This document shows, piece by piece, positions 14,701-64,000 of a stretch of DNA of 64,000 bases. The notes under the pieces were generated by a model. It was given only the letters and a program-made list of their open reading frames with translations. It had not been told where the DNA came from and ran no database searches. Each line of letters opens with the position of its first letter. Position 1 is the first letter of the stretch. The position numbers and the translations under genes were made by a program. This DNA is from Eledone cirrhosa (Eukaryota): positions 337,776,001 through 337,840,000 of the forward strand of contig OZ024740.1 in assembly GCA_964016885.1 (NCBI GenBank). Direction: 5' to 3'.

Positions 14701-14977
14701 GATCTTCAGAATATAATAGGAAAAATTATAGAATGAGGAAAAAAAAAATTCCAGACATGTTTTCATCTTATTAGATCTTTTCAGAGAAGCATCTACTTCC
14801 CTATACATGATGAGGTAGTGATGATAGAATCCCTAAATAGACATATAATATTGTACATTGTTTGGAAACATAACTGTTAAGAGAATATAGGTCTCTTGGA
14901 TGATATCAGAATGTAAATATAATAGTTAAGTTAGTCTTAATATATTTAGTGTAAGGAATATGAGAAAGCTACCAAGA

Positions 14978-15255
14978 AATAATTGTTTCTACTTTAGGCA
15001 CAAGGCCAGCAATTACCCAGTACATTACTGGTACTTTATTTTATCGACCCCGTAAGGATGAAAGGCAAGAAATAATTGTTTCTACTTTAGGCACAAGGCC
15101 AGCAATTATCCAGTGCATTACTGGTACTTTATTTTACCGACCCCGTAAGGATGAAAGGCAAAGTGAACCTCGGCGGGATTTGAACTCAGATCGTAAAGGG
15201 ACGTAACTATGCTGGAAAGCATGGCGTCCGACTCTCTACTGATACTGCCAATCCA
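14978..15255 (-). mobile_element. SINE family A, one full copy plus a tandem 3'-half copy
   Basis: aataattgtttctactttaggcacaaggccagcaatta occurs twice, at 14978 and 15071. Confidence 0.9.
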
Positions 15256-35359: not shown

Positions 35360-36487
35360 TATTGCCGAAGTCAACTTTGCATTTTATTTTTCCAGGTCCG
35401 TAAAATAAAGTACTAGTGCAGAACTGGGGTTGATATTATCAACTTCTCCCTCCTTAAACTGCTGGCCTCATGCCTAAATTAAAAAACCATTATTACTGAG
35501 GGCGGTGGATTGGCAGTATCGGTAGAAGGTCGGACGCCATGTTTTGACGCATAGAATTACTGCCCTCGCCATTCTGAGTTCAAATCCCGCCGAGGTTAAC
35601 TTTGCCTTTCATCGTTACGGGGTCTATAAAATAAAGTACCAGTAATGTACTGAGTAATCGCTGGCCTTGTGCCAAAAGTAGAAACAATTATTACCGAGGG
35701 CAGAATAAAAAGAAATGCTTTGCAGAATTTGTTCTAAGTTTTTAAGTTTTTAAGATTCAAATTTGACCAAGATTAACTTTCTCTTTCATCCTTCAGTGAC
35801 CAATAAAATAAAGTACCAGTTATGTACTTGGGTCAATTTTATCGACTTTTGCATGAGTTAGAAAGCACTATTATTATGGTCATTTAAGAGAGGGAAAAGT
35901 CGATTAAATCGATGCCAGTGCATTACTGGTACTTTATTTTATCAATCCCGTACGAACGAAAGGCAAAGCTAATCCTGCCAAGGTTAGCTTCACCTTTCAT
36001 CCTTACGGGGTCGATAAAATAAAGTACCAGTCACGCACTGGGTCGATTTAATCGACTCCCCCCCCCCAAAAAAAAAAATTGCTGGCCTTGTGCCTATATA
36101 AGAAACCATTTTGGCAGTGTTGGTAGAAGGTCGGACGCCATGCTTTGACGCATAGAGTTACGGCCCTTGCCATTCTATGTTCAAATCCCGCCGAGGTTAA
36201 CTTTGCCTTTCATCCTTATGGGTCGATAAAATAAAGTACCAGTAATGCACTGGGTAATTGCTGGCCTTGTGCCTAAAGTAGAAACAATTATTATGTGGAT
36301 TGGCAGTATCGGTAGAGGGTCGAACGCTATGCTTTGACGCGCAGAGTTACGGCCCTTGCCATTCTGAGTTCGAATCTCGCCGAGGTTAACTTTGCCTTTC
36401 ATCCTTACGGGGTCGATAAAATAAAGTACCAGTAATGCACTGGGTAATTGCTGGCCTTGTGCAAAAAAGTAGAAACAATTATTATTA
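35360..36487 (+). mobile_element. Tandem cluster of ~7 SINE family A copies/fragments (one inverted at 35888-35972)
   Basis: Repeated consensus units separated only by short ATT tails. Confidence 0.9.
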
Positions 36488-46148: not shown

Positions 46149-48049
46149 TAAGTTCCATCTCTTCATGAATTTTTTTTTTAATCTGTATGTTCATCATTCA
46201 ACACAAATTCATCACCTGTAGCAATAGCAAAAAATTCTATTTAACACATAGCATCATATTAGCAAGATATTCTTGAAAAGTATGAAACATTGTTACAACT
46301 ACAAAACATTAACAATTGATACCTTTACTGCAAATGTTCCCAATGATCTGTCCACGAGTATAGACACAACAAATATTGGAATTAACAAACATATTAGATA
46401 TTTTCTAGTAAAAGAGTTAAAGAAACATTTGCAGCCAAATTCTCTTTTCACAGACAATATTGTATTTCATAGCAAAACTCTGAAAGATGTTGTCTTTAGT
46501 GACACAGTTTAGGATTTTAAATAGTAGATTCAAGTCGACTATGAAATAGGAAAGGCATTGTTAATCTCTAAAAAATTTAAGTTCTTTGTGGTAATAGATA
46601 ATACAGGAATTCTTTGATTATTTCAAAGGTTTCTAACCCTACAGCAAGCTATTAATTTTCAATATCATTAAATATCATTGCTGCCCATTTCACATTAAGA
46701 CAAAACTTATTGATGATATAGACATGTCTGTTTCAAGATTATGCAGTGAACCAGGTGTCAGAACAGATAATGAAGCTGTCACAAGATTGTTGTTCAGTTT
46801 CTTAATTGTATTAAGACCAATAATTATTTCTATTATAATAGAAAATGAGAATGCTGAAATTTCAGCAAAACATTTCTATCCATTTTGAATGATAGTAAGT
46901 AATTAACCCAATGAAACACTCAAGAAATTTAGAATTTTCAACCTCAAGAAAACCAAATGGTGGCTGATATCTGCAGTCTCTCAGGATCCAGCAACATCTT
47001 GCCTTCATTAAAACATTGACAGAGAAATGATAACTTAATCACATTGAATTTAGATTTGAGAAAAAACTTGAAAATTTTATTCCTTGATCCTTTTATTTTT
47101 TCCACATACTGCTGCATCATCAAAGTAATTAACTACCCCCTTTTAAGTCCTTAACACTTTCTCTCTTTACTTTGCTAAAACCTGGCACTCTATCTGTAAC
47201 TCTTAAAGGCAATTATGTAAATTGTATAATTCGTTATTTGCTTCAAAGTTTGCAAATATTGTTGCTGGGGAGACATGATCATTGATTATATGCTGAATAA
47301 AGATCAGTAGTATTGATATGAGGATTTCTATGAATTTGGCTTAAAACATCACTAATGAGAATGGCATGGGAGATGCATCTAGTTGTCTGTGTCTATTAAT
47401 AGTAGATATGTTCTCAATGACTAAATGCCTTTTGCCGTAACTTTTGTTGACCTACAACAATCTGAGAACACCATGGTGACTTTGCAAGTATAATTATTCT
47501 CTTAACCAGCAGTTTATTAATTTCAATGTTAATGATTTCCCTGTCTTCAAAGGAGCAATTTTAAGTGGAGTAACATGGATATCTTTTTACAGAAATTCCA
47601 AAACTTTACTCTGTAAATGTTCAAAGTTTTAAAGGCTTGTTAAATGTATTATTAAATTTCAGGTCAACACATGCATTAAATAGGTGGGAGTTTGTCATTA
47701 AATTCAATCTCAATTTAAAGATGACCCAGTTAGTAATTAATATAATATAATATTTTGCAGTTAGTAATTAATATAATATACAATAACCCCATGAGTTTAT
47801 GAACTATTTGGGGCTAGGTGAATGTGTTTGTTAATGTTGAAAGTCCATTCAATCAAAAGTGACTTAAGGGTTATTCTTATTGTTTTTAATACAATGTACA
47901 CATGTGTATAATGTAAAATTAATAAGGAAAAATTAATAACAATTTAAGTATTTTTTACCTATTTTATGGCAGTTTGTTGAAGAGTATTTTGCCATGACTG
48001 TAGTGGTACTATAGTAATGTACTGTTATTATTTGGTCCACTAAGTGCAG

Positions 48050-48482
48050 TGGGTTGAGGGTATTGGTACTGTCAGACACCCTGCTGCACGGCATATAGTT
48101 ACGACACTTTACATTCTGAGTTCAAATCCTGCCAAGGTTACCTTTGCCTTTCATCCTCATAGGGTCGATAAAATAAGGCACCAGTAATGCACTGGGGTTG
48201 ATTTAATCGACTTCCCCTCCCCAAAATTGTTGGCCTTGTGCCTAAATCAGAAACCGTTATTTGGTCCACTAAAATGGTGGTGGATTTGCAGAATTGTTAA
48301 AGCAGCAGACAAATGCTTAGAAGTATTTATTCTGGCTCTGTACATTCTCAGTTCAAATCCTGTTGATGTCAACTTTGCCTTTCATTCTTCTGGGGTTGAT
48401 AAAACAAAGTACCAGTCACATACTTGAATCGATGTAATCGACTTTCCTCCCCCTGCGAATTGCTAGCCTTGTGCCTAATTAT
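48050..48482 (+). mobile_element. Two tandem SINE family A-related copies
   Basis: Two B boxes (gttcaaatcc) and two gccttgtgcct tails. Confidence 0.8.
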
Positions 48483-50199
48483 TCTGTTTGTTCAATCAGA
48501 CCTCCGTTAAATCAGGGTGTTAAACCTAAGGTTTACTATAAGTATAGAATATCCAAAATTAAACTGAAATTTTTAATCCTATTTGCAGTTAATACATTAA
48601 AAAAATTATTCCTGTTGTTTTCCCATCTTCATCATACCTGTCTCTTACTTTAGCAATCTCTGGTTTGCATTGCTTGGCTTCTTTCAAAACTGAAAATAGT
48701 TATTTTTTATTCTTTCTTTACTTGATATTATTTTTGTAGTCATTACAGTAGATGATTTCTGGTTGCAGCAAAGTCACACCTCTATGTATTCATTGTAAAT
48801 ATAGAATTGATGTCTCAGCTTTTGAATAGTGGATTCTATTTACGATCATTAGTTTTCTTGTTTTCCAATCTAATATTGCTAATTCATTTAATTTATATTT
48901 GAGAATATTATAACTACAACTTGTTATTAGAACAGCTAGGGTAATGAAAGCTATTAAGTTGTTTTCAGTATAAGTAGACTTTTAAGTACTATTCTAATAC
49001 AACAATGATATTTCTTTCTTACATTTTTCATTAATGTTTTGTAATTCATTTATCTGGTCCATTAATTATAAAGTAGTATTTATAAGTCGGTGATTGATTT
49101 AATTTTCTTCTATCTGTTTCTTTACAAAACATGATATTAGGGGGTTTTATTTGTTTTACTCGTCTCAAGATTTGACTCTTTGACAGATTATTTTCTGGCT
49201 CGAATTATTTGGTAATTTTGTGTATTGTCTGTAGTAGTGTTTCTAGTTATTTATCATCCATATACAGAAAAAAAGTTGATTGGCTTCCCATATTATTTGT
49301 ATTTGAGTCAAGTCTGATTGAGGATGATGGTTGAATGTGTTAACACCAGGTGGGAAAAAAAGGAGTGAAGAGAAGGAATCCCCTTAGATTATATCAGTTC
49401 TATCAGAGATTGTTTCGTTTTTATGATTATCTTTATTATCTATGCCATGCTTGGACAATTCTCTCTCATTTAGTTATAACTTTGATGATCAGTAATGGAT
49501 CTTATATTTATATTAATTAGTATTTGGGATATCCAATTTTTTCTACCAGAACTATGGTGCAGTTTCATATTTTTGAGTTCTTGTGAAGATTATTATAGAC
49601 TGAAGATAAAATGCCATTTTTTCTTTGTTCAAAAACCTGTTACATTATATATAACATCATATTTATAACTATCTAATGAAAATCTTTTATCTTAGCCACT
49701 CTTTAGTTTTGATTTTAAGTTCTATTAAAATAGAAATAAAAATATTTCTGTTATAATCACATCATCTTGATTCTCATTGCTGATTTCATCAAAAGTTATG
49801 GATTTTTAATATTTTATTTTCTGTATATCTCTACAACTGTTTTCTATATTTAGATTTTCCTAGTCAAGAATCTCTAAGGTAGCAGTCCTTGTTCTGTATG
49901 ATTACTGCAGCTGTTACATGGATTATGTATTACTTAACCACAGGATGATCCTGATAGATTGGACCTATGACCAAAGGTTTTCCATCTGTTGAGGTGTATA
50001 TAGGAGTAGATTAAGAGAAGCTGCTAACATTTCAATGTAAAGGATCAATGACAAATGTGGATTGATCAGTGTTGAGTGCATAACATCTCCTACATTGTGG
50101 ATTATCCATTAAGGAAATGGAGTAGGATATTAAAGAAGGAAAAGGAGAAAAAAAACAATAAAACATGAACAACAATAACTATAATAATACTAATATTAA

Positions 50200-50420
50200 T
50201 AATGATCTCCCCTATAGGAACAAAGCCAGAAATTTTGAGGGAGGGGAAAGTCGATTAAATCGACCCCACTGCATTACTGGTGTTTTATTTTATCAACCCT
50301 GTAAGGATGAAAGGCAAAGCTAACCTCGGTGGGATTCGAACCCAGAACGTAAAGGGCCATAACTCTCTGCTGCAAAGCATAAGGTTATGGTATCTGATAC
50401 TCTACCAACACTGCCAATCT
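50200..50420 (-). mobile_element. SINE family A (long-tail variant)
   Basis: Reverse complement of the consensus. Confidence 0.8.
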
Positions 50421-50774
50421 AATAATATTCATAATAATAACAATAATCTATATTATAAAAGAGAAGCTGGTTCTCTGTCTTTCTGTCCAACATAACATAT
50501 ATGGAAGAAGAGGAGAAAAAGAAGTGAAAAGTCATTGTTGTCAAGAGAAACACACACACACATACACCCCCCCCCCCACATACACACAGAGAGGAGAAAG
50601 TGTGTGTGTGTGAAAGAGAGGTGACATCAGAATGATAGCGATAGTCTTTAAGACTGAAGTCCAAGTCGCTAACCGCTCTATCTATCTTTCACAAACTCTC
50701 TTAACAACAACAACGATTCACTCCTTCCCTTTTCCCCTTCTACATATATGTGTGAAAAGTTGTTGTTGAGAGAC

Positions 50775-51202
50775 AAATACAGTGTGAGATAGAGAAAATT
50801 TGTGAAAGATAGATAGGGTGGGAGAGTGTTGATTAATAAATATTTTACTGGAACATAGCCACGGACTTTTGCTAATAATAATTGTTTCTACTTTTGGCAC
50901 AAAGCCAGCAACTACTCCAGTGCATTACTGGTACTTTATTTCATTGACCCCGTAAGGAAGAAAGGCAAACTTAACCTTGGCGGGATTTGTTAACTTTGCT
51001 TTTCATCCTTCCGGGTGTCAATAAAATAAAGTACCAGTAATAAACTGGGATAATTGCTGGCCTTCTGTCAAAAGCAGAAACAATTATCATTATTAGCAAA
51101 AACCCGTGGCTACGATCCAGTAAAAATATTTGTTAATCAACATTTCCTCCATATCTATCTTTCACAGACTTTCTCTCTCTCTCTCTGTCTCACACTGTAT
51201 TA
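50775..51202. repeat. Diverged ~430-bp fold-back made of a SINE A 3' half plus ~100 bp of flank
   Basis: aatacagtgtgagatagaga...tagccacggacttttgctaataat mirrored by attattagcaaaaacccgtggcta...tctcacactgtatt; centre ~50985. Confidence 0.8.
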
Positions 51203-51423
51203 AATAATTCTTTCTGATTTAGGCACAAAGTCAACAATTTTGTGGGAGGGGAAAGTCATTTAAATCAACTCCAGTGCATTACTGGTACTTTATTTTATTG
51301 ACCCTGTAAAGATGAAAGGCAAAGTTAACTTCGGCAGGATTTGAACTCAGAATGTAAAGAGCCGAGCTCTATGCCAGAAAGCATGGTGTCCAATGCTCTA
51401 CCAATACTGCCAATCCACTACCC

Positions 51424-51424
<1 letters not shown>
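51203..51424 (-). mobile_element. SINE family A abutting the 3' end of Tx1 copy 1
   Basis: Consensus match; followed by (AAT)n. Confidence 0.88.
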
Positions 51425-51466
<42 letters not shown>

Positions 51467-51724
51467 TTCTTTATTAACCACAAGGGTTTACATAAAGTAG
51501 ACATTAAGGACAGTGCAGGACAATGCAGGACGGTACAAATGGGCATTTCTGCGTGTAAAAAACAAAAACAGAGGATGTAACAAAAATAACAATGAAAATA
51601 ACAATGAAAAATTCCCCAATAGGGGGGAGACTTCGGAGGGACATTTGTGGTGAAAGCCCAGTAAAAAGCCACAATGACCCTGACCACCAAGGCAAGTGCC
51701 CTCTCCCAGTTTTCCACCTTTAAT

Positions 51725-54700
51725 TTACAGATATATACTCAGAGTAGGCCCATTCACTCGGGCCATTCTTGCTTCTCTCACCCATCTTTCAACAAAAAGC
51801 TGGGAAGAGAGCACTTCCCTCTCTACTCTGATTTTCCTTTTCAAATGAAATTTGAAAAAGTCAATCAGAGCATCACCGAAGAGGTAAGTGCTCGTCTTCA
51901 GCCCTTTCAAACGTGTCCACCATACTATCTCTTTCACCATGGCCACCAGGCAGATAAAAACTGCCTGCCCTTCCCGGCTAAAGGAGGAGGGCGGGGCAAT
52001 CCTCACGATGGACTCAGATGATAGCCGGATCCGTCCTAAACGCGACAGCAGGTGTTCGACATAAACCCACAAGTCAGCAATTTTCGGACACTGGACGAGT
52101 GCGTGCAGGACGGTTTCGTCGCCCTGCGCGCATCTCGGACATGCCCGGCTGACGGCACCTCCATGCCTGTAGAGTTTATCCCGAACTGGCAAGGCTCCTC
52201 GGTAGCACTGCCAGGCCAGAGATTTCTGGAAGTTGTCCATTGGCCCTGGCCCGAAAGTTCTTCCGAAGAGATTGGCTAGTTGATTTTCGTCGACGCCTAG
52301 AGTTTCCCCAAGTACGTCATCGCTCTTCCCCTCCACTAATCCTCTATAGAACGCCGAGGTGGAGTTTCCACCGATCACATTGCCCGATTGGTCGAGGGCT
52401 GTGAGCGCCTGAAGACATTCCAGTCTCCAGGCGCTCCCTCTCGGTCTTCGCTTGACCCAGGACTGCAGCTCCGTCAAGGAAACGAGCTGGGGAAACACGC
52501 GCCTAGCAAACGGCGACCACACCTGATCACCGTCGAGGAAGAGGTGGAGATGTCGTAGCCTGAGCGCGTGCCTGCGCATCATCAGCCACGGCATGCCCAG
52601 CCCTCCACGTAGCGGGTGTTGACAACAGATGGACCGCCTGACCATCGGAGCGCGTCCCTTCCACAAAAAGCGAAAGAGCAAACGCTCCAGCGCAGTCAGG
52701 CGAGGCTTAGGACAAGGTACGACGGTCAGACGGTAGCAGATGACGGACGCGATGTACGCGTTAGCCACCTCCGCTCGACCTTTCAGGGATAGCTTCCTCT
52801 CCGCCCATTTCTGGGTGAGAGAAGCCACCCTGCTCGTCACCTCGTCCCAGTTTTTGTCCGTCTGGAGGTCCGGACCGAACCAGACCCCTAGCAATTTAAC
52901 CGGTCCGTCCGTCCAGCGTCCGACGACGCTGTTGGATGGCATGGACTTGCCTCTCCAGGTGCCGAGCTGCAGGCCCACTGACTTTTCCTGGTTGATCATT
53001 GCTCCTGTCACCGCTTCGTATTCTCTTAGTGTAGTGCCGATCGCCTCGATGTGTTTGGCGCTCGACACCACTACGGTGACATCGTCCGCATATGCTGACA
53101 CTGATCTTCCGCATCCTAGTTCGCGCGGGACTCCCCTCAACGTCTCCAGTTTGTGCAGTAATGGCTCGAGAGTCAATACGTACAAGAGGGACGAGAGGGG
53201 ACATCCTTGGCGGACCGAGCGCATGATGTTGAACGGTTCCGACAGGTGACCGTTCACTCTCACCACAGAGCAGATGTCGCTGTGCATGGCAGCGATCCAG
53301 CCTCTGAAGACGGGCCCAAAGCCAGCCGCCCTCAGGACTGCCGCTAGGTAACGATGGTCGACCCTATCGAAAGCTTTCGACTGATCTAAATTGATCAAGG
53401 ACCCACCCGTGCCAGGTTCCCTAGCTACCCTCTCTACGATGTATCGCATGAGGTGGAGGTTGTCGTGGATGGATCTGTCGGGAATGGCGCATGTCTGCGC
53501 CTCTCCCACCAGACCACCAACGACAAGCGCCAACCTCTTTGCTAGCACCTTGGCCAAAATCTTAAACTCTGTGTTTAGCAGAGTTATGGGCCGGAAATTG
53601 TCTATGTTATCCCCCTTGTTCGGATCCTTTCTCAGCAGTGCCACCGCTCCTCGGCTCACAGAACTGGGAATTCTCCCGTTCTGTTGCCAGTTGCAGTAGA
53701 CGTCCGCCAAGAGGCCTCCGAACAAGTCTGGCATCTGTACGTAAAGTTCATAGGGCAGACCATCCAAACCAGGCGATTTACCCCTTGTGCAGCCAGTCAT
53801 TGCCTCCCGTACTTCAGCGGCTGTTATCGGCTTTTCGCAACACCTCGCCTCAGTGGCCGAGAGCCGCGGCAGTCCGTCGAGGTAGACACTAAAGTCCATC
53901 CCTCTACCCGGCCCCCCGCTGCCCCCGAACAGCTGAGCGAAGTGTCGCTGAAAAGCTTCACACATTTGCCCGGGATCGAGTAGCATGCGCCCGTCGTGGT
54001 CCACCAAAGACCGGATCGTGGCTTTGTTGCCACGACGCGCCTCCGCCACTCGGGCCCATTGAACGGCTTTCGTCCCCTCGTGTCTGAGAGCACGCATCCT
54101 AGCTCTGACAACGCAGCCTTCGTGCTTTGCATTGAAGAATTGGTCAAGGGCCAATTTCGCCGCAAGCACGTCGGTCGCAATGCCTTTGCTAAGCGCCTCG
54201 TCTAATTTTCTAACTAGTCTTCCCTCTGCTCTATTTTTCTCTATTGCTAAAGCCTTACTAAACCTAATCGATTCTATTCTAATCGCTCTTTTCAGAGCAA
54301 ACCACCACTTGTTGTTGACGATGGCCCCCGTCAACGCCCGCTTAACTAGTTCGCTAATCCGGTCTCTGTAGGCCTTGCGCGCTGGTAAGGACGCGTTTAG
54401 CTTCCAGTAGCCGGGTCCTCGTCTATGAAGCCTATCTAAGTCAAGCACACAGGTCACGAATTTGTGGTCCGTGTAGCTGACTATCTTGAATTGTGGACAG
54501 CCTATGCTAGACCTATCTATTTCCCTACAAAATACTCTATCTAGATATGATCTGGATGACCCTATGTGGTTTGTCCAAGTCCACATTGGCACATTCGGGA
54601 AATCCAATCGGTACCTGTCAGACAGTTCAAAACGCCTGAGCAGGTTGGTGAGGCTCTTGCACCCTCCACCCCTATCCGCTAATCCCACACAGTCCCATCG

Positions 54701-55144
54701 TGCATCTAAGATCCCGTTCCAGTCGCCCACTAACACTAAAGAGCGGGACGTTCCAAGAAAGGTCTCCAGACGCCGGAAGAAATCAGGCCGCCCTGCTCCT
54801 GTCGGGGCATAGACGGCCACTAGCCTGAAAGCTTGCCCGTCTCCGCTGGTCACGTCCAGCACCACCAGCTTACCCTCTGGGTCCAGGAAGATGGCCCGTA
54901 TGGCGAGATCCAAACCTCTCCGAAAAAGCACAGCAACTCCTCCACCCGATCCCGGACGGCTGGGAGATGCGTACACATCGTAGCCGCCGAAGATCGGTGC
55001 GAAGGCCCGTGCTTCGGAGATTCTGGTCTCGCTGATGGCCACTACATCTATGTTTAGTGACCTGAGGTCGTTGAGCAGGTGACCCTGCTTCCATGACGAC
55101 CCCAAGCCACGCGCATTTATGCTGCCTATTCTGAGTGAGGTCAT
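51725..55144 (-). CDS. ORF2: APE endonuclease + reverse transcriptase + C-terminal Cys/His motif (1139 aa, intact)
   Basis: SINARGL, SET, VYAP, GDWN, YLDR, TDH; KSPGLDG, FRPITLLN, DQSKAFD, RQGCPLS, YADD; CPRC...ETVLHALVQC. Confidence 0.96.
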   Translation of the reverse strand: MTSLRIGSINARGLGSSWKQGHLLNDLRSLNIDVVAISETRISEARAFAPIFGGYDVYASPSRPGSGGGVAVLFRRGLDLAIRAIFLDPEGKLVVLDVTSGDGQAFRLVAVYAPTGAGRPDFFRRLETFLGTSRSLVLVGDWNGILDARWDCVGLADRGGGCKSLTNLLRRFELSDRYRLDFPNVPMWTWTNHIGSSRSYLDRVFCREIDRSSIGCPQFKIVSYTDHKFVTCVLDLDRLHRRGPGYWKLNASLPARKAYRDRISELVKRALTGAIVNNKWWFALKRAIRIESIRFSKALAIEKNRAEGRLVRKLDEALSKGIATDVLAAKLALDQFFNAKHEGCVVRARMRALRHEGTKAVQWARVAEARRGNKATIRSLVDHDGRMLLDPGQMCEAFQRHFAQLFGGSGGPGRGMDFSVYLDGLPRLSATEARCCEKPITAAEVREAMTGCTRGKSPGLDGLPYELYVQMPDLFGGLLADVYCNWQQNGRIPSSVSRGAVALLRKDPNKGDNIDNFRPITLLNTEFKILAKVLAKRLALVVGGLVGEAQTCAIPDRSIHDNLHLMRYIVERVAREPGTGGSLINLDQSKAFDRVDHRYLAAVLRAAGFGPVFRGWIAAMHSDICSVVRVNGHLSEPFNIMRSVRQGCPLSSLLYVLTLEPLLHKLETLRGVPRELGCGRSVSAYADDVTVVVSSAKHIEAIGTTLREYEAVTGAMINQEKSVGLQLGTWRGKSMPSNSVVGRWTDGPVKLLGVWFGPDLQTDKNWDEVTSRVASLTQKWAERKLSLKGRAEVANAYIASVICYRLTVVPCPKPRLTALERLLFRFLWKGRAPMVRRSICCQHPLRGGLGMPWLMMRRHALRLRHLHLFLDGDQVWSPFARRVFPQLVSLTELQSWVKRRPRGSAWRLECLQALTALDQSGNVIGGNSTSAFYRGLVEGKSDDVLGETLGVDENQLANLFGRTFGPGPMDNFQKSLAWQCYRGALPVRDKLYRHGGAVSRACPRCAQGDETVLHALVQCPKIADLWVYVEHLLSRLGRIRLSSESIVRIAPPSSFSREGQAVFICLVAMVKEIVWWTRLKGLKTSTYLFGDALIDFFKFHLKRKIRVEREVLSSQLFVERWVREARMARVNGPTLSIYL

Positions 55145-55179
55145 GTTTAAAATAGAGTGGAAAAGATGGGAAAGACCAC

Positions 55180-57280
55180 TTACCGTACTTTTGGTAGAGG
55201 AGGGATGGTTTTTACATCCCTTTTCACTTGATCGTCTGGTGAAGGGACCGTTGAATCGTCCCTTCGGCTGGTCGTCGGCTCTTCTAAGAGAATGTCTGAA
55301 TATACTCTTCGATTGATGGTTCCTCCTAGGTCCCTGAAATCACCAACTGCGTTGAGGAATTTCGTTTTAATGTTTGTGTATTGTTTCTGTGCTATTTTTA
55401 GCAGTCTTATGTTAGTTGGCGTTTTGATTGGTGCTGGTATTATGTAGTCCTGTTGTGAAATGTCTGTGTGTTCAATTATGTAAGTCATTAGTTTCTTGTT
55501 GTGTGTATTTATTGCCGTGCATTTGTTTTTCTGGGGGTGGGGCGTGGTTCTGCTATTTTCTTGTCGTTGTTGCTGGGTGTGTGTGTTTTGTTGTTGTGTT
55601 TGCGATGTTGGTGCTTGTGGTGGTGGTGTTGAAGGTGTTGTTGGCGGTGGGGTTGTCGCCGGTGGTGATGGTGGTGCTAGTGTGGGTGGTGATGGTGTTG
55701 GTGGTGTTGCTGCTGTGGGTCTCTTTGCAGTAGACTTTACCCTTTTCTCATTTCTTTCCTCCCTTTTCAAAGGCGACGATGCGCTGCTTCTGCGTTTGTG
55801 CCTTCTTACGACCTTTTGCCATCCCTCTCCCACCTCACACTCCATGTCTGATTCTGTGAGGTCGGGGAGGGGTACCAGCTCCACTCTTTCACTTGTTGTT
55901 GTTGGTGATGTTTGCACTGGAGTCTCTGTTGCAGCTGCATTTGGTATTGCTGTTGTTGTTAATATTTCCACTGCTGCTGCTGTTTTTGATTTCCGTGGAG
56001 TGGGTATGGGTGCTACGGACCTATCGTTCCTGGTTTCCGCTTGTCCTGTTGCTGGTAGCCGTGGAGCCGGATTCGGAAGGAGGGGGGTTTTCTCCTTTCT
56101 CAGGGTCTTCTCGTTGCAGAAGGCCCTGAGGTGAGTCTTCGATCCACAGCGAAAGCATTTCGGGCGTTTGCCCTCAACACTTATGGGCAGTTGAGTGCCG
56201 TTATCGAAGTCTATCACATCCGGGATAGCTTCGATGCACTCCTGGTTGGTTTGGATTAGCATCTCAATGGAGGTGCCGACCCAATCTTCTCTTACTTTTT
56301 TCTGTACTTGCAGTACAGTTGTTTTGTCCTCGATTCCGACGAGGACAGACGCGGCCAGGCAAGAAGCGGCCATTCGGGGGGGGGGGGGGGGAGTGGGTCA
56401 GTTTGACCCTCACACTTTTTTGCCCGCAGTAGGAGGGCACCAACACCATTTCCTTGCTCCTTAGGGTCACTACTGATTGGGCCTTTGCCTCCTGGGGTGT
56501 GGCAAAAAGTACGTCTACGGTGGCATATTTTTTTCCTCGGGTGATGTGCGTTTTCCGCTGCCACACAGACCCCAAGGCTTTTTGTATCTGAGCCTCTGTG
56601 GCTCTTTCCACCCTACGGGATTTTGTACTTACTGTACGGTACGTGACCGTACAGTGCTGTTGGGTTTCGAAAAATTTTTCCGCTGCCTTGCAGATTGCTC
56701 GGTGTCCATTCTTTGTCACCATCTTCTTCGCTTCCTCTAATTCCTCATTTGTTATGAGGATTGTTTCCAAGTTTTTCGCAATGCCTGCAAATGAGATTGG
56801 TTTTTCTTTGCTGCTATTGTTGTTGTTGTCGTCAGAGCTGCTGGTACTTTTGTTGTTGCTGCAGGTACTACGACTACTGCCTCCGCCGCTGTTGCTGTGG
56901 TTGTTGTTGGTGTTGCTGCTGCTAATGCTGTTGTTGTTTATGCTGCTGGTGATGCTGTTGCGGCTGCTACTGTTGTTTTCATTGTCACTGTTGCTGTTGT
57001 TATTACGGCTGCTACTGCTATTATTCCTGACGTCAGACGAATGAACTGGGTTTTCGTATTTCCCGCACACCTGTTTCGTCGCTGTCGTCGTGGAGAAACC
57101 TTGCACGCTTTGCACGAGATTTTTCTTTTCTGTCGTCACTTGCGAAAGAGAAGGGAGGGAGAGAGACACATTTAAAGAAGGGAGGAAGAGAGACAATCTT
57201 CTCTCTGCTGTAGTGATGATTGAGGAAGAAGAAGACGGAATGAGTGGGAGTGACGTATGAAATTTCTTTTTCGTAGCCAT
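55180..57280 (-). CDS. ORF1 (gag-like, CCHC knuckle), split by a frameshift at the G16 run 56376-56391
   Basis: ORFs 56264-57280 and 55180-56373 meet at the homopolymer; CFRCGSKTHLRAFC; N/S-rich and P/T-rich low-complexity tracts. Confidence 0.85.
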
Positions 57281-57495
57281 GTTGTTTTTTTGTTTAAAAT
57301 GAATATTGGGTACAAAACCCCAATAACTGGTTATTTAACCCCGAAGGGCCAAATAACGAACAGAAAGACCCCTCTCACTAGGAGGAGGGTGTCTTTATCA
57401 ACAATTTGGTTCAAGTTTTAAACAATTTACAATTGTTTTAACGGTTAAAAATTACTATACCTTACAGAGCCGAGCCTCCGTCAACCATGGCATTC

Positions 57496-57527
<32 letters not shown>

Positions 57528-57531
<4 letters not shown>

Positions 57532-57710
57532 TGTTTCTACTTTAGGCACAAGGCCAGCAAATTACTCAGTGCATTACTGGTACTTTATTTTATCGACCCC
57601 GTAAGGATGAAAGGCAAAGTCAACCTCGGCGGGATTTGAACTCAGATCGTAAATGGACGTAACTATGCTGGAAAGCATGGCGTCCGACCCTCTACCGATA
57701 CTGCCAATCC
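57528..57710 (-). mobile_element. SINE family A between Tx1 copies 1 and 2
   Basis: Consensus match with (AAT)n on both sides; nearly identical to 62978-63165. Confidence 0.92.
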
Positions 57711-57716
57711 ATAATA

Positions 57717-60700
57717 ATGATTTCATTTATTGGCCACAAGGGCCAACATATAGGGGACAATACAAAAGACTGGGACAGTGGGGTTTTACAGAAAAATCGA
57801 GTAAACAATATGAATAACAATAACAAAGTAACAATAACAAAGTAACAATAACAAAGTAACAATAACAAAGTAACAATAAAGTAACAATAAAATTACAAGA
57901 AAAAATTCCCCAATAGGGGGGATGACCACCTAGGGTTCGCTCAGGTACCCCACCAGTCCTCAACGACCCGACGCTTCGAGAGCACCCTGGAACAGCACCC
58001 CTCTCCTCCTCAAATTTACCTACCTACAGCCGCATGCCAGAGTAGGCCCACTCACACGGGCCATTCTCGCCACATTCACCCACCTTTCAGCAAATGTACT
58101 GGGGGGGGGGGGGGGGGGGGGGGGTCAGCACTTCTCTCTCCACCCTCACCTTCCTTTCCAAGTGAAACTTGAAAAAGTTGATGAGGGATTGGCCGAATAG
58201 AAAAGTGTCTGTCTTCAGTCCTTTCAACCACGTCCACCATAAACCTCTTTCGCTACTGCCACCAAACAGAGGAAAATTCCCTGCCCTTCCTGGCCAAAAG
58301 AAGGCGACGGGTCGATCTTTATTATGGACTCGGCCGATAGCCGGATCCGTTCTACACGCGACAACAGCTGTTCCACATAACTCCACAAGTCAGTAATGCA
58401 TGGACACTGGACGAGTGCATGCAGAACGGTTTCGTCGCTCTGCGTGCATCTCGGGCAGGTCCGTCTGACAGCACTTCCGTGCCTGTAGAGTTTATCTCGA
58501 ACCGGCAGTGCCCCCCGGTAGCACTGCCAAACGAGAAATTTTTGGAAATTATCCATCCCCGGCTCGAAAGTCCTCTGGTACAGACTGATTAGTTCGACTT
58601 CGTTGACTCCCAGAGCCTCTCCGAGTGCGTCGTCGCACTTGCCCACCACTAATCCTCTATAGAACTCGAGAGTGGAAGTCCCACTGACCGCATTGCCCGC
58701 TTGGTAGAGGGCAGTGAGTGCCTGGCAACATTCCAGATGCCAATCACCCAGTCTCGGTCTCTTCTTGACCCAGGACTGCAACTCAGTCAAAGAAACGAGC
58801 TGCGGAAAGTCCCGTCTGACAAACGGTGACCACACCTGTTCACCGTTTAGGCAGAATATCTAGATATACCGCATCCTAAGCGCGTGCCTGCGCATCATTA
58901 GCCACGGCATGCCCAGCCCTCCACGTAGAGGGTGCTGGCAGCAGATGGACCGCTTCACCAGCGGAACCTGACCCCTCCACAAGAATTTGAAGAGGAGCTG
59001 CTCCAACATGGCGAGGTGTGAACGGGGCAAGGGACGACAGTCAGATGGTAGTAGATGACGGACGCGATGTACGCGTTCGCCACCTCCACCCTACCTTTCA
59101 GTGATAGCTTCATCCCAGCACATTTCTGGGTGAGACTGACTACCCTGCCCGTCACCTCGTCCCAATTCTTATCCACCTGGAGGTCTGGCCCGAATCAGAC
59201 CCCTAGCAACTTTACCGGTCCGTCCGTCCAGCGCCTAACGATGCTGTTGGACGGCATGGACTTGCCTCTCCAGGTGCCGAGTTGCAAGCCCACTGACTTT
59301 TCCAGGTTAAGTTTCGCTGCCGTCAACCTTTCATATTCCTCCAATAAGTTGCCGACCACCTCGATTTCTGAGGTGTCCGACACCATCACTGTGATGTCGT
59401 CCGCATAAGCCGACACAGCCTTTCCGCGTCCCGGTTCGAGCAGGATGCCCTGCAACAGCTCCAGCTTCCGCAGTAAAGGCTCGAGAGTCAATACGTACAG
59501 AAGGGAGGAGAGAGGGCACCCTTGACGGACCGATCGGGAAACCTGAAACGGTTCCGAGAGGTGGCCATTAATTTTGACCATCGAGCAGGTGCCGCTGTGC
59601 ATTGCAGCGATCCAGCTTCTGAAGACGGGGCCGAAGCCAGCCGCCTTGAGGACAGCCTCCAGGTACCAATGGTCGACCCTATCGAATGCTTTCGATTGAT
59701 CTAAATTGATCAGAGCCCCACCGAAGCCAGGTTTATACCCTACTCTCTCTATGATGTATCGCATTAGGTGGAGGTTGTCGTGTATGGACCTGGTTGGGAT
59801 TGCGCAAGTTTGCGCCTCCCCAACCAAATTCCCGACGACAAGCGCCAACCTCTTCGCTAACACCCTGGCCAAAATCTTAAACTCTGTGTTGAGCAGAGTT
59901 ATGGGCCTGAAATTGCCTAATGTGTCCCTCTTGTTCTCGTCTTTCCTTATCAGCATTACTACGCCCGGCTCACAGAACTGGGAATACTCCCGTTTTGCTG
60001 CCAGTTGCAGCAGAGAACTTCGAGGAGATTGGAAAACAAGTCTGGCATATTTACGTAAAGCTCGTAGGGCAGACCATCCAAACCGGGTGACTTGCGCCTC
60101 ATGCAGCCGACAAGGGCATCCTGAATCTCGGCTGAAGTAATTGGCCTTTCGCAGCGCCCAGCGTCAGCCGTCGAGAGTTGCGGAAAGCCATCGAGGTAGG
60201 GACTGAAATCCGTCACCATCTCTGCCCCGCCACTTCCCCCAAAATGTTGGCGAAAGGCCTCACACATCTTCTTGGAATCGCTCAGCTCATGCCCGCCTCG
60301 GTCCGTCAAAGACCGAATCGTGGTTTTATTGCCACGCGGGCCCATCAAACAGCTTTGGTTCCTTCGTTTCTCAGAGCATGCGCCTTAGCTCTAACAATGC
60401 AACCTTTGTGTTTCGCATTGAAGAAATGGTCTAATGCCATTCTCGCCGCTAGCACGTTAGTTGCAATGCCACTACAAATAGCCTCGTCTAAGTTATCTAC
60501 CAACTCCCCCTCCTTTCTATTTTTCTCTAACGTAACTTCTTTGCTAAACTCTATCGACATTACTCTAATCTCTCTTTTGAGAGCCCCCCCCCCCCCCCCC
60601 ACCATCTATTGTTGACGACTCCTCCTGTCAACTTTTTCTTAACTAAATTGTTGACCTGGTCCCTGTAAGCCTTACGTGCCAGAAATGACGTGTTTAGCTT

Positions 60701-62942
60701 CCAGTAACCAGGTCCTAATCTACGCGTCTTATCTAGGTCGACCATACAGATCACAAACTTGTGATCTGAATAGGCGACCGTTTCAAAACGTGGACAGCTT
60801 ACATTATTTCAGTCTATTTTCCTAATGAATATCCTGTCTATATACGATCTAGATGACCCTATGCGGTTAGCCCAGGTCCACACTGGCGCATTAGGGAAAT
60901 CTAGTCGGTACCTGTCAGACAGTTGGAACTGGCTGATCAGGTTCATGAGGCTTTTGTACCCCCCGCTCCTATCAGATACTCCCACACAGTCCCAGCGTGC
61001 GTCTAAGATGCCGTTCCAGACCCCCGCTAACAGTAAAGGGCGAGACGTACCCAGAAAGGCTTCCAGGCGTCTAAAGAAGTCCGGCCCTCCTGCCCCAGTA
61101 GGAGCATAGACGGCCACCAGTCTAAAGGCACCATCTTCGTTATTGTTCACGTCCAGGACCACCAACTTCCCGTCCGGGTCCCGGAAGATCGACCTTACCT
61201 TGAGATCCAGGCCTTTCCTAAACAGCACTTCCACCCCGCCTCCCATTCCCGGCCGGCTAACAGATGCAAAGATCTGATAGTCGTCGAAAATGGGGGCTAG
61301 TGCGCGCGTGTCGGAAATCCTGGTCTCGCTGACGGCAATTACATCCATTTCTATAGACCTGAGGTCGTTGAGCAGGTGACCCTGCTTCCAGGACGATCCC
61401 AGGCCTCGAACATTTAAACATCCTACTCTTAATACGGCCATGTTGGCAGGTTAAATAGAGAGAGAAGAAGGTTTACTTACCTTCCGGGCTCTTGTGAAGG
61501 TCGGGTTGTTCGACCTCTATAGTTGGTAGGGTTTCTTTTGGGAACCCCTTTAAAAGTCTTGAAGTGGGTTTTACGTTCGGGGTTCACACGTCCCGAGGAA
61601 AGCTGTCTCGTATTTCTTTGAATATATCGAGCGACATTCACACAGAACTAAATCTTCCGGCACGCGAAATGTGCTCGATTTAAAAATTTCCCCCTCTTTT
61701 TGTATATTTTCACTTCGTGTTACGAGGGCCATCAGTTCCTTGTTGGCCCTCCTGACAAGCATGAAGTTTTGTATGTTTTGTTGGTGTGATTTTATTTGTT
61801 TGCGTGGCTGTGGTGGTGATGGTTTTGGTGGTGTTGTTTCGGTTGTATCTGTGTTTGTTGTGAGTGTGGTGTCTGTGGTTTCAGATGTTTGTGTGTATAT
61901 TTGTTCTTGCGTCTGTTTAGGTTGTTTGCGTTTGGAGGATTCTGGTGATGGTGATGGAGGTGTTGATGTTGGTGTTATTGGAGAGATGTTTGCGTGGGTG
62001 GTGTCTGCGTTTTTTATTGTGGGTGATTTTGTGCTTTATTGAGTTTTTTTTTTCTTTTTGTGTTTCCTTTTTTGTATTTTGGGGATTTTGGTTTTCCCTC
62101 ATCTTCACTACTGGTAGATGAGACGTCTGTGTCTGTAAGTGTGTCTGTATGTATGTTTATGGTTTTATTGGTGTGTATTTTGGGGGGAGGGGGAATTTGA
62201 CAGCTTTCCTCGTTTCCCCCCTGGGTGGTCAATGTTGGTGGTGGTCTTTCTATTTGTGTTGTTGTTGGTGGTTTTGCCGGTACTGGTGTTGCCGGTGCTG
62301 GTGTTTGTTTGAGAGGTCCATGTTGAAGCATGGCCTCTTTTTTGCTGCTGCCGCAGCGAAAGTGTTCTTCTTGTTTTCGTTGGAAGTGTTGTGGTCGTTG
62401 TTGTTGTTCTTGTTGGTGTTGTTGTTAGCACTGTCGCTGTTATCATTGTTGTCTTTGTTGCCACCGTTGTTCTCGGTGCAGTTGGTATTGTTGCTGTTGG
62501 TGTTGTCGCTATTTGTTTTCATGTTAATGGTGTTGATATTGTTGTTGTATTTGTGATTTTTTTTTTGTTATCTGTATTTTCCTTGTCGCTGTTATTGTAT
62601 TTTTTTCAAAATTAGAGTTCTCATTGGTATCATTTGTGTCTTTGTTTACATTGTTTGTGGTGGTGTTTGTGTTAATTTCGGTGTAGCGCTCCTCTCAACT
62701 TCCACGTTGTTGTCGCACGACAGCAGACATATCGCTGGGGGGCGTGGCTCAGCCATGTTTTTTTTTCTTCGTAAATGTTTTAACATGTAAAATATTTGGG
62801 CCAAATATTATACTTTCCTCTTCACAGGGCAAAGTCTAAGGGCTTATATCCCTTACACAACAAGAAATATTTAACAACAAATAATTTTAACAGGCAAATA
62901 AAGCGACTTACTGGGAGTGAGCAAAATACGTCCGCTTAGACC
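57717..62942 (-). mobile_element. Tx1-like retrotransposon copy 2 (diverged sister family, decayed)
   Basis: ORF2 pieces from 61441 to ~58025 are homologous to copy 1. ORF1 is shortened (start ~62756). (AAT)n flanks. Confidence 0.92.
58025..61441 (-). pseudogene. Fragmented ORF2 (APE-RT) of copy 2
   Basis: LNVRGLG, GPGYWKLN, KSPGLDG, YADD and CPRC spread across frameshifted ORFs. Confidence 0.92.
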
Positions 62943-62977
<35 letters not shown>

Positions 62978-62981
<4 letters not shown>

Positions 62982-63165
62982 TGTTTCTACTTTAGGCACA
63001 AGGCTAGCAATTACCCAGTGCATTACTGGTACTTTATTTTATCGACCCGTAAGGATGAAAGGCAAAGTCAACCTCGGCGGGATTTGAACTCAGATCGTAA
63101 AGGGACGTAACTATGCTGGAAAGCATGGCGTCCGACCCTCTACCGATACTGCCAATCCACCGTCC
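62978..63165 (-). mobile_element. SINE family A between Tx1 copies 2 and 3
   Basis: Consensus match with (AAT)n on both sides. Confidence 0.92.
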
Positions 63166-63179
63166 TAATAATAATAATA

Positions 63180-64000
63180 ATGCTTTCTTTATTAAGTACA
63201 CAAAGTAAAACATTAAGGACAATACAGGACAGTACAAATGGACATTTCTGCATGTAAACAAAACAAAAACAGAAGATGTAACAAAAACGAAACAATGAAA
63301 AAATTCCCCAATAGGGGGGAGACTTCCGAGGGACATTCGTGGAGAAAGCCCATTAAAAAAGACACGGTGACCCTGACCACCAGGGCAAGTGCCCCCTCCC
63401 AGTTTTCCACCTTCAATTTACAGGCACATACTGAGAGTAGGCCCGTTCACACGGGCCATTCTTGCCTCTCTCACCCATCTTTCAACAAAATGCTGGGAAG
63501 AGAACACTTCCCTCTCTACACTGATTTTCCTTTTCAAATGAAATTTGAAAAAGTTAATCAAGGCATCACCGAAGAGGTAAGTGCTCGTCTTCAGCCCTTT
63601 CAAGCACGTCCACCATACTATCTCTTTCGCCATGGCCACCAGACAGATAAAAACTGCCTGCCCTTCCCGACTAAAGGAAGAGGGAGAGGTAATCCTCACG
63701 ATGGACTCAGCTGATAGCTGGATCCGTCCTACACGCGGCAGCAGGTGTTCGACATAAACCCACAAGTCCGCAATGCTCGGACACTGGACGAGTGCATGCA
63801 GGACGGTTTCGTCGCCCTGCGCACATCTCGGACATGCCCGGCTGACGACACTTCCATGCCTGTAGAGTTTATCCCGAACTGGCAAAGCTCCTCCGTAGCA
63901 CTGCCAGGCCAGGGATTTTTGGAATTTGTTCATAGGCCCCGGCCCGAAAGTTCTTCCGAAGAGATTGGCTAGTTGATTTTAGTTGACGCCTAGAGTTTCC
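63180..64000 (-). mobile_element. Tx1-like retrotransposon copy 3, 3' end (same family as copy 1; continues beyond window)
   Basis: ORF 63418-63933 closely matches the copy 1 ORF2 C-terminus; 3'UTR is collinear with 51465-51720. Confidence 0.92.

Follow-up and report, generated by a model that had tools for sequence, protein, structure and literature searches.

A co-oriented array of L1/Tx1-group LINEs and tRNA-type SINEs with ATT repeats at its junctions in Eledone cirrhosa

Introduction

Long interspersed nuclear elements (LINEs) of the Tx1 clade include families that insert into microsatellites; the teleost families Kibi and Koshi occupy (TC)n and (TTC)n, and crocodilian Tx1 families occupy (TTCC)n or (TTTC)n (PMC4494074, PMC3812793). 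Here we describe a 64,000-nucleotide stretch of the Eledone cirrhosa genome (contig OZ024740.1, positions 337,776,001 to 337,840,000; hereafter the window, with coordinates counted from its first letter), in which three L1/Tx1-group LINEs and three tRNA-type short interspersed nuclear elements (SINEs) form an array at 51203-64000. The array LINEs resemble Kibi, Koshi and the crocodilian families in belonging to the L1/Tx1 group with an apurinic/apyrimidinic endonuclease (APE), in having a microsatellite at both ends and in their fixed orientation (PMC4494074, PMC3812793). A Tx1 family has been called microsatellite-specific when more than 20% of its flanks genome-wide lie in one microsatellite (PMC4494074); the present analysis reads one locus. 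Differences from Kibi and Koshi are the repeat itself, ATT/AAT, a strictness of targeting that is unproven, a nearest sister lineage without a microsatellite target, and the presence of a SINE with the same tail.

Dong is an R4-clade element with a restriction-like endonuclease. Dong, DongAg and DongBg target (TAA)n, the same microsatellite that adjoins the array LINEs, and the review that reports this places Dong among the APE types (PMC3812793); Dong-R4 elements are active in Octopus vulgaris (PMC13282606). Unlike Dong, the array LINEs have an N-terminal APE domain, and their nearest solved structure is human L1 ORF2p.

Human L1 and Alu copies in A-rich linkers and tails are similar to the array in another respect, namely a SINE and a LINE with the same tail repeat that would pair with the nicked target, and nesting in the sense orientation; in the human case 15-16 nt separate the two nicks, and the target duplication is partly hidden in the repeat (PMC2836564). 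The array differs from human L1/Alu in its tail, which consists of (ATT)n and not of poly(A), and in the structured 3' end that SINE and LINE have in common, a sign of stringent, not relaxed, recognition of the RNA. A common tail of this structured kind characterises stringent pairs (PMC4176376), and pairs with a 3' stem-loop include UnaL2/UnaSINE and ZfL2, maize LINE1-1_ZM with ZmSINE2/3, and Chlamydomonas L1-1_CR with SINEX-3 (PMC4176376, PMC3472496). As in these pairs, the terminal hairpin of the array elements is common to both partners, with a conserved loop and a variable stem (PMC4176376, PMC3472496). A survey of 2012 lists L1-clade tails in 3 of 58 LINE-tailed SINEs, all from plants or a green alga and none from an animal (PMC3472496, PMC3747384, in the parts cited); unlike those L1-clade pairs, the array SINE would be an animal case. 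The crocodilian SINEU has been assigned to Tx1 machinery (Tx1-Mar) only by a target preference common to both; it has small nuclear RNA (snRNA) heads and poly(A) tails, with no LINE-derived 3' end found according to the text cited (PMC4494074), whereas the array SINE has a tRNA-type head and a LINE-like 3' end.

Tandems that arise by double insertion, as described for Drosophila R1, the P element and non-long-terminal-repeat elements, run head-to-tail with the duplicated target between units and include 5'-truncated members (PMC5932611). Unlike them, the window array is made up of two LINE families and two SINE subfamilies and is not homogenised. In Octopus vulgaris the SINE share of the assembly is 11.6%, and 13 L1-Tx1 families have been active recently; a total of 80 L1-Tx1 families is listed for the species (PMC13282606). 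The accessible text of PMC13282606, PMC8967140, PMC4758252 and PMC5786205 gives no target or partner for octopus Tx1 elements, and neither a Tx1 family that targets (AAT)n nor an octopus SINE with a Tx1 partner came up in our literature search, whose scope did not extend to Repbase, Dfam, SINEBase or some supplements, where entries may exist.

Results and Discussion

Direct reading of the sequence placed all six elements of the array on the minus strand, with ATT repeats at all junctions. In element sense, from right to left, the order is LINE-3, (ATT)5, SINE-3, (ATT)13, LINE-2, ATTATTAT, SINE-2, (ATT)12, LINE-1, ATTATC(ATT)11, SINE-1. This bears out an initial annotation of the window, which had described a co-oriented minus-strand series of SINEs and LINEs with (AAT)n between them and had assigned the second LINE to another family than the first and third; LINE-1 and LINE-3 (family A) are 90.6% identical over 795 bp, and LINE-1 and LINE-2 (family B) are 75.0% identical over 3454 bp. 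We think it somewhat probable that the array consists of independent insertions piled up by one kind of machinery, each primed by its tail at an ATT motif and each rebuilding the target. The head-to-tail stacking would follow from the fact that LINE and SINE both end in ATT repeats and land on ATT-rich spots.

The insertion habit of the SINE can be followed outside the array. Within 22 nt upstream of the insertion, TTATT or ATTAT was present in sense in 9 of 14 SINEs and in antisense in 2 of 14, against a background of 8.9% (P 5e-7). Target duplications of 11-19 nt, visible in about 7 of these 14 copies, start with ATT or TTATT. Among the 28 SINE segments of the window, 8 of 27 neighbouring pairs abut, and six of these run tail to head in one orientation, where 0.48 are expected (none of 20,000 random placements reached this number). 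The suggestion in the initial annotation that such elements seed their own targets is upheld in the form of a tail and a target duplication that together re-form the motif, since the SINE does so elsewhere in the window. By its A and B boxes, its dispersed copies and its target duplications the element is a tRNA-derived SINE (SINE2): all three array SINEs have an A box with one mismatch and an exact B box, and the B box has 20 matches in the window against 5.4 expected, the A-box pattern alone not being above chance. The array SINE may be a MetaSINE, a superfamily with a 66-bp Meta domain behind the head, given a resemblance of its central region. The partners of MetaSINEs were unknown in 2016 (PMC4824008).

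The LINEs are associated with longer tracts. Perfect (AAT)n tracts of at least six units number four in the window, three of them inside the array, and an ATT repeat on a fixed strand adjoins both visible LINE 5' ends and all three 3' ends at this one locus. Of 17 near-full SINE copies, 15 have tails of 4-10 nt; the two with long tails (36 and 39 nt) are those that stand before LINE 5' ends. The class of tract found at the LINE 5' ends, 12-13 perfect units, makes up 0.08% of the window outside the array, and the spacer between LINE-2 and SINE-2 measures only 8 nt. The location of both 5' ends in long tracts has a P of 0.0008-0.0055 if the LINE had only a preference for 5-6-mers, which suggests that the LINE is choosier than the SINE, and a P of 0.08 under a 9-mer preference. 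The link between LINE and tract is real, resting on two junctions of one locus.

The alternation of SINE and LINE, to which the initial annotation had attached meaning, is incidental and not remarkable. A strict alternation of three and three elements is realised in 2 of 20 possible orders, which is not beyond chance. At the measured preference 0.3-0.85 SINEs are expected per 10-unit tract, and the filling of both spacers has a P of 0.07-0.33. The presence of SINEs in the array is explained by the SINE's own insertion habit, that is, its motif bias and stacking.

Comparison of the 3' ends disclosed a resemblance of SINE and LINE over the ~35 nt that precede the ATT tail, with a CTTGT-loop hairpin, an A-rich stretch and GAAA. 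A matrix built from 13 SINE tails ranked the three LINE ends 3, 10 and 12 among 943 anchored window positions, which is suggestive. An old SINE tail of the window matched the terminus of a LINE from a sister lineage (described below) at 30 of 35 nt (E 6e-6); the resemblance of the SINE tail to LINE-1, LINE-2 and LINE-3 is weaker. A profile of nine sister LINE ends alone gave 21 window matches at E<=10, of which 19 lie in SINE tails (best E 1e-4), while the reversed window, used as a control, gave one match (E 5.6). In an alignment of 17 rows from the SINE, the LINEs and the sister, 82% of the 85 cells of a five-pair stem around a CTNGT loop were paired, with 11 two-sided changes; none of 500 shuffles was paired as highly, and all slid controls were lower. 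The two have two marks of a stringent SINE/LINE pair, a 3' end in common and a terminal stem-loop with compensatory changes, the structure being a post hoc one and missing in LINE-3. From these sequence comparisons the SINE 3' tail appears to derive from this LINE lineage. Given that common tail, the SINE is most likely mobilised by one of the lineage's families.

The assignment of the LINEs to the L1 group (L1/Tx1) follows from the Pfam domains of ORF2, namely Exo_endo_phos, RVT_1 and zf-RVT. The closest solved structure to ORF2 is human L1 ORF2p (E 5e-52), with R2 at E 5e-22, and a protein-atlas search with ORF2 named only reverse transcriptase and endonuclease clusters. An ORF1 with an RNA-binding core and a CCHC knuckle is a feature of the Tx1 clade. 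LINE-1 ORF1 contains a CCHC motif, and the intact sister ORF1, to which it is homologous (E 4e-8), scores zf-CCHC above the cut-off; Pfam on LINE-1 ORF1 itself returned just a sub-threshold MBD match. In a reverse transcriptase tree of 32 rows, from which two short hits were left out, the window elements and one protein (P0001) form a 100/100 branch within a 100/99 clade of 1140-1150-aa proteins, beside fish proteins; the clade proteins are unlabelled, and the rows hold no labelled Tx1 reference. A partial relative from Argonauta hians, 58% identical (P0061), places the branch in octopods.

The sister lineage was collected by a search with an alignment of the 1140-1150-aa clade proteins, which gave 49 loci, 41 of them from eukaryotic contigs in one bacterial metagenome-assembled genome (MAG) record. 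The ORF2 of one sister locus (L086) is 94% identical to a clade protein (P0040) and 41% identical in amino acids to LINE-1. All sister subfamilies have a pyrimidine tract, AGGC-CTNGT-GCCT, a second hairpin and AATAAA at the 3' end, and their copies follow one another head-to-tail at intervals of 6.4-6.85 kb. None of 69 counted sister 3' ends, with overlapping loci counted more than once, carries (ATT)3, (AAT)3 or poly(A). The spacers are 17-19 nt long after AATAAA and differ between arrays, with about eight unrelated types; at each of three array ends the spacer sequence passes into unique flank, and upstream of two out of four array starts it occurs again, which identifies the spacers as target duplications of ~17 nt. 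Two junctions lead into 5'-truncated copies, 17-19 nt behind AATAAA, which suggests repeated insertion at the same site; these members, at L087:1081 / L093 and at L090:10126, stand directly behind the spacer, one starting in ORF1 and one in ORF2. Four pairs of neighbouring units, compared over 3.4 kb of ORF2, show 0, 1, 1 and 7 differing nucleotides, which fits double insertion followed by expansion, and the sister arrays closely match the tandems described for that process (PMC5932611). Because no sister end bears the repeat and spacers are specific to each array, (AAT)n is not a lineage-wide target, and a target conserved across the lineage, as in Kibi and Koshi, was not found. Stacking would thus be a habit of the lineage, and the ATT tail or target, judged by sequence comparison, a feature of the octopod branch only.

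Sequencing reads and other collections were consulted for the same elements. Reads from 4 of 24 listed runs were aligned on 57150-63550, excluding the two (AAT)n junctions at 57490-57542 and 62934-62992. Families A and B and the SINE, all of them highly repeated, were covered along their length in each of the four runs (29-30 of 30 bins). The flanks of SINE heads in reads are heterogeneous and A/T-rich (agreement 0.42-0.44). In restriction-site-associated DNA (RAD) data, 8,047 reads that extend from 57711 rightwards, the LINE-2-type 3' end, run leftwards as (AAT)n and then (AAC)n, not as a SINE head (agreement 0.71, a weak signal), and at such loose ends the (AAT)n that follows LINE-type 3' ends has at least seven units (likewise weak). 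RAD depth is far above that of the LINE-2 3' untranslated region (UTR), so the source of these reads may be simple repeats or further families whose 3' end is the same. The 80 metagenome loci recovered were distant (at most 35%) and held one (AAT)5 in total. Viral contigs gave no match by alignment, protein or SINE pattern, and prokaryote genomes none by the 3' UTR pattern. Rfam found no match near gathering score in 48000-64000 or in four sister loci, and ARAGORN no tRNA in the window or in 12 loci, so that targeting of tRNA or snRNA genes is unsupported.

In the mechanism that we propose, the LINE RNA would end in a small CTNGT-loop hairpin and AATAAA, followed in this branch by an (ATT)n tail in place of poly(A). 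The endonuclease would nick the AAT-reading strand at ATT-rich motifs, and the AUU tail of the RNA would pair with the freed end and prime reverse transcription, which would fix the orientation. Completion would leave a target duplication, of the kind visible for the SINE and the sister LINE. Tail and duplication would then restore the motif on both sides, and later copies could adjoin earlier ones in the same direction. Long tracts, with their many registers, would draw full-length LINEs, and the far more numerous SINEs would then enter the ~10-unit tracts between LINEs. Before SINE-2 and SINE-3 arrived, the locus would have read LINE-(ATT)~10-LINE-(ATT)~10-LINE-(ATT)11 beside an old SINE; less the 2-3 units of SINE tail and the duplicated part, about 10 units would lie between LINEs, which equals the length of the LINE-1 tail. 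We infer both this order of events and the mobilisation of the SINE in trans.

Several observations weigh against this account. With two LINE 5' junctions, a loose and a strict LINE preference are indistinguishable. One of the six tail-to-head SINE abutments is a single event sharing one target duplication, and another is an insertion inside a SINE. In SINE-1 the tail is short and the long tract lies on the 5' side, which is not expected from a simple order of SINE into tract. The profile of sister ends misses the ends of LINE-1, LINE-2 and LINE-3, and just three of its matches have E<0.01. The stems differ, being AACC/GGTT and GGCC/GGCC in the LINEs and GGC/GCC in the SINE, and LINE-3 has no hairpin, that of LINE-1 being missing at the aligned place; moreover, the hairpin was picked by eye from the same sequences, and related rows inflate the pair counts. 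In view of the profile result, the differing stems and the lack of a hairpin in LINE-3, the likely carrier is the lineage, not necessarily family A or B, and it may be another of its families.

The ATT repeats could also reflect a strict (AAT)n specificity encoded in the endonuclease, like that of Kibi and Koshi, with the 3' (ATT)n being partly or wholly target and not tail. Both 5' ends abut tracts of the rare 12-13-unit class, the association is common to two families 75% alike, and (TC)n, (TTC)n, (TTCC)n and (TTTC)n are established targets of Tx1 families (PMC4494074). The sister target duplication begins almost directly after AATAAA, so the ATT here could be target DNA, and the (AAT)n at RAD loose ends agrees weakly. 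The two junctions, however, belong to one locus and are not independent once a pile-up begins, the SINE with the lineage's tail enters unique DNA at short ATTAT/TTATT motifs, and the sister has no common target; strict specificity is therefore unlikely. L1 endonucleases with grafted loops nick at new sites, but integration still takes place at T-tracts, and pairing of RNA and target has been named as a possible filter (PMC1950540), so that flanks alone cannot credit specificity to an endonuclease. Of the strand-specific (AAT)n targeting by the APE domain that had been proposed in the initial annotation, the association between LINE ends and ATT repeats stands, whereas strict specificity encoded in the endonuclease is not supported, in view of the SINEs at short motifs and the sister without (AAT)n. 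The target might instead be the 3' end module, hairpin and tail, of lineage copies or of the SINE that mimics them, or a copy's own target duplication, (ATT)n being only the local form of the spacer. This would agree with the five internal junctions, all of 3' end to 5' end, with the position of both LINE 5' ends behind a hairpin-bearing SINE tail, and with sister arrays that are head-to-tail with no microsatellite and include 5'-truncated members. We find it improbable all the same: the near-identity of sister units fits double insertion and unequal exchange with no need for end-targeting (PMC5932611), just 3 of 14 SINEs outside the array stand directly behind a tail, and the long SINE tails before LINEs would be left unexplained.

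A further possibility makes the alternation obligatory, either through SINE and LINE moving as one unit by read-through or through SINE-2 and SINE-3 being a ~200-bp target duplication of LINE-2. These two SINEs do lie on either side of LINE-2, and each is the closest match of the other (176 identities, 3 mismatches, 2 gaps); some Tx1 families, moreover, have captured snRNA heads (PMC4494074). An unlinked copy at 15071 comes near to the same similarity, with 173 identities and 6-7 mismatches, and SINE-1 is of another subfamily (85% identity to SINE-2 and SINE-3), so that LINE-1 has no such duplication. SINE-2 also lacks ~7 nt of its head, target duplications of the lineage are ~17 nt long, and RAD reads leaving LINE-type 3' ends lead mostly into (AAT)n rather than a SINE head (again weakly); a composite unit is very improbable. 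That the array is an assembly artefact or a chance juxtaposition is scarcely credible. No read contig spans the stretch, and long G/C runs in the LINEs may be consensus errors, yet the six sequences are distinct (75-97% alike) with clean, biologically typical junctions, and both families are covered in the reads as described above.

Piled-up independent insertions therefore remain the reading we prefer. A wider picture is possible, but we hold it only tentatively: an animal L1/Tx1-group lineage may recognise its RNA by a hairpin, may have replaced poly(A) with (ATT)n in octopods, may find its target mainly through tail pairing at (AAT)n and may carry a very abundant octopus SINE, LINE and SINE jointly seeding and colonising AAT microsatellites across the genome. 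Microsatellite targeting, targets regenerated by tails and nested stacks of SINEs and LINEs are already known; the link between SINE and LINE tails is what is new, and together with the contrast of an ATT-tailed and a tail-less branch it is the most valuable point. If the reading is correct, the likely carrier lineage of a dominant octopus SINE would have a name, an animal case would be added to the very few SINEs whose 3' tail is of L1-group type, and AAT would join the microsatellites used by APE-type Tx1-like elements. The octopod branch with its ATT tail and the tail-less sister would also form a natural pair for asking whether endonuclease or RNA-DNA pairing sets the target, and the open ORF2 of LINE-1 makes such a test practical.

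Features of the array

All features given here lie on the minus strand. SINE-1 (51203..51424; A box 51401-51412, B box 51337-51346) belongs to the older subfamily and has an extra 29-nt segment with a pyrimidine tract; its 7-nt ATT tail, at the outer end, is an ordinary one. It is followed by ATTATC(ATT)11 (51425..51463), the tail of LINE-1 or spacer. LINE-1 (51464..57495), of family A, is 6.0 kb long and apparently full length. Its 3' hairpin (51476..51488) has a 4-bp AACC/GGTT stem and a CTTGT loop and is followed by AATAAA at 51475-51470. ORF2 (51725..55144) is open over 1139 aa, with APE endonuclease, reverse transcriptase and zf-RVT, while ORF1 (55180..57280), with an RNA-binding-type core and the CCHC knuckle, changes frame at a C run near 56377-56392.

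Between the LINE-1 5' end and the SINE-2 tail lies (ATT)12 (57496..57531). SINE-2 (57532..57710; A box 57695-57706, B box 57632-57641) is of the young subfamily, with a head ~7 nt short and a GGC-CTTGT-GCC 3' hairpin at 57555-57545. The adjoining 8-nt spacer ATTATTAT (57711..57718) can be read as the LINE-2 tail or as the 5' target copy of SINE-2. LINE-2 (57719..62942), of family B, is 5.2 kb long with its 5' end present. Its 3' hairpin (57728..57748), with an 8-bp stem and a CTTGT loop (z -2.4), overlaps AATAAA at 57731-57726. ORF2 of LINE-2 is in five pieces with four frame changes; its ORF1 has no RNA-binding/CCHC core and is ~0.8 kb shorter than that of LINE-1, with both low-complexity flanks kept (61440-62760).

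The LINE-2 5' end and the SINE-3 tail are separated by (ATT)13 (62943..62981). SINE-3 (62982..63166; A box 63143-63154, B box 63080-63089) is of the young subfamily with a full head, and the (ATT)5 spacer behind it (63167..63181) has 15 nt, a typical length for target duplications of the array SINE. LINE-3 (63182..64000), of family A, is represented by its 3' end only (last ~820 bp), runs past 64000 and has one in-frame stop in the visible ORF2.

Other observations

At 14977-15255 a full SINE and a second copy of its own 3' half lie within one target duplication, a single event with a restart of reverse transcription. Seven SINE segments are crowded into 1.1 kb at 35363-36478, with three co-oriented tail-to-head junctions and one inverted. 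An old inverted duplication occupies 50731-51254; its arms are ~83% alike, its centre, at 50989, is the head-to-head meeting point of two 5'-truncated halves of SINEs, and one arm ends at the SINE-1 tail. It was considered as an empty-site copy and is too decayed for that use. The lack of a target duplication at SINE-1 was likewise dropped as proof that a LINE had hit the 5' edge of a SINE, because about half of the other copies show none either.

Long G/C runs occur in LINE coding sequence (56377-56392, 58098-58124, 60585-60601) where the other family has mixed sequence, and they coincide with frame changes; they may be real expansions or assembly errors. The LINE-2 3' UTR contains about five copies of a 14-nt repeat (57808-57900) that is not in family A. 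A second conserved 3' UTR hairpin near 51610/57910 was rejected, its folding being no better than that of shuffles (z -0.5, +0.4).

The bacterial MAG record mentioned above (G001; L081-L119, L122, L125, L130-L139) includes at least 15 eukaryotic contigs with arrays of a Tx1-like LINE whose reading frames are open; this is contamination of the prokaryote genome set, and a LINE turning into a satellite. At one array start in this record (L137, G001:C18) the spacer occurs twice upstream of the array, ~450 nt apart and both times behind the same flank; this is a small duplication at the place of insertion. Finally, the window contains seven perfect (ATC)n tracts of at least six units (e.g., 7347, 23484, 27467, 30556), several near B-box matches that do not belong to the array SINE (23589, 31160), and these tracts probably mark a second SINE family with ATG/CAT tails.

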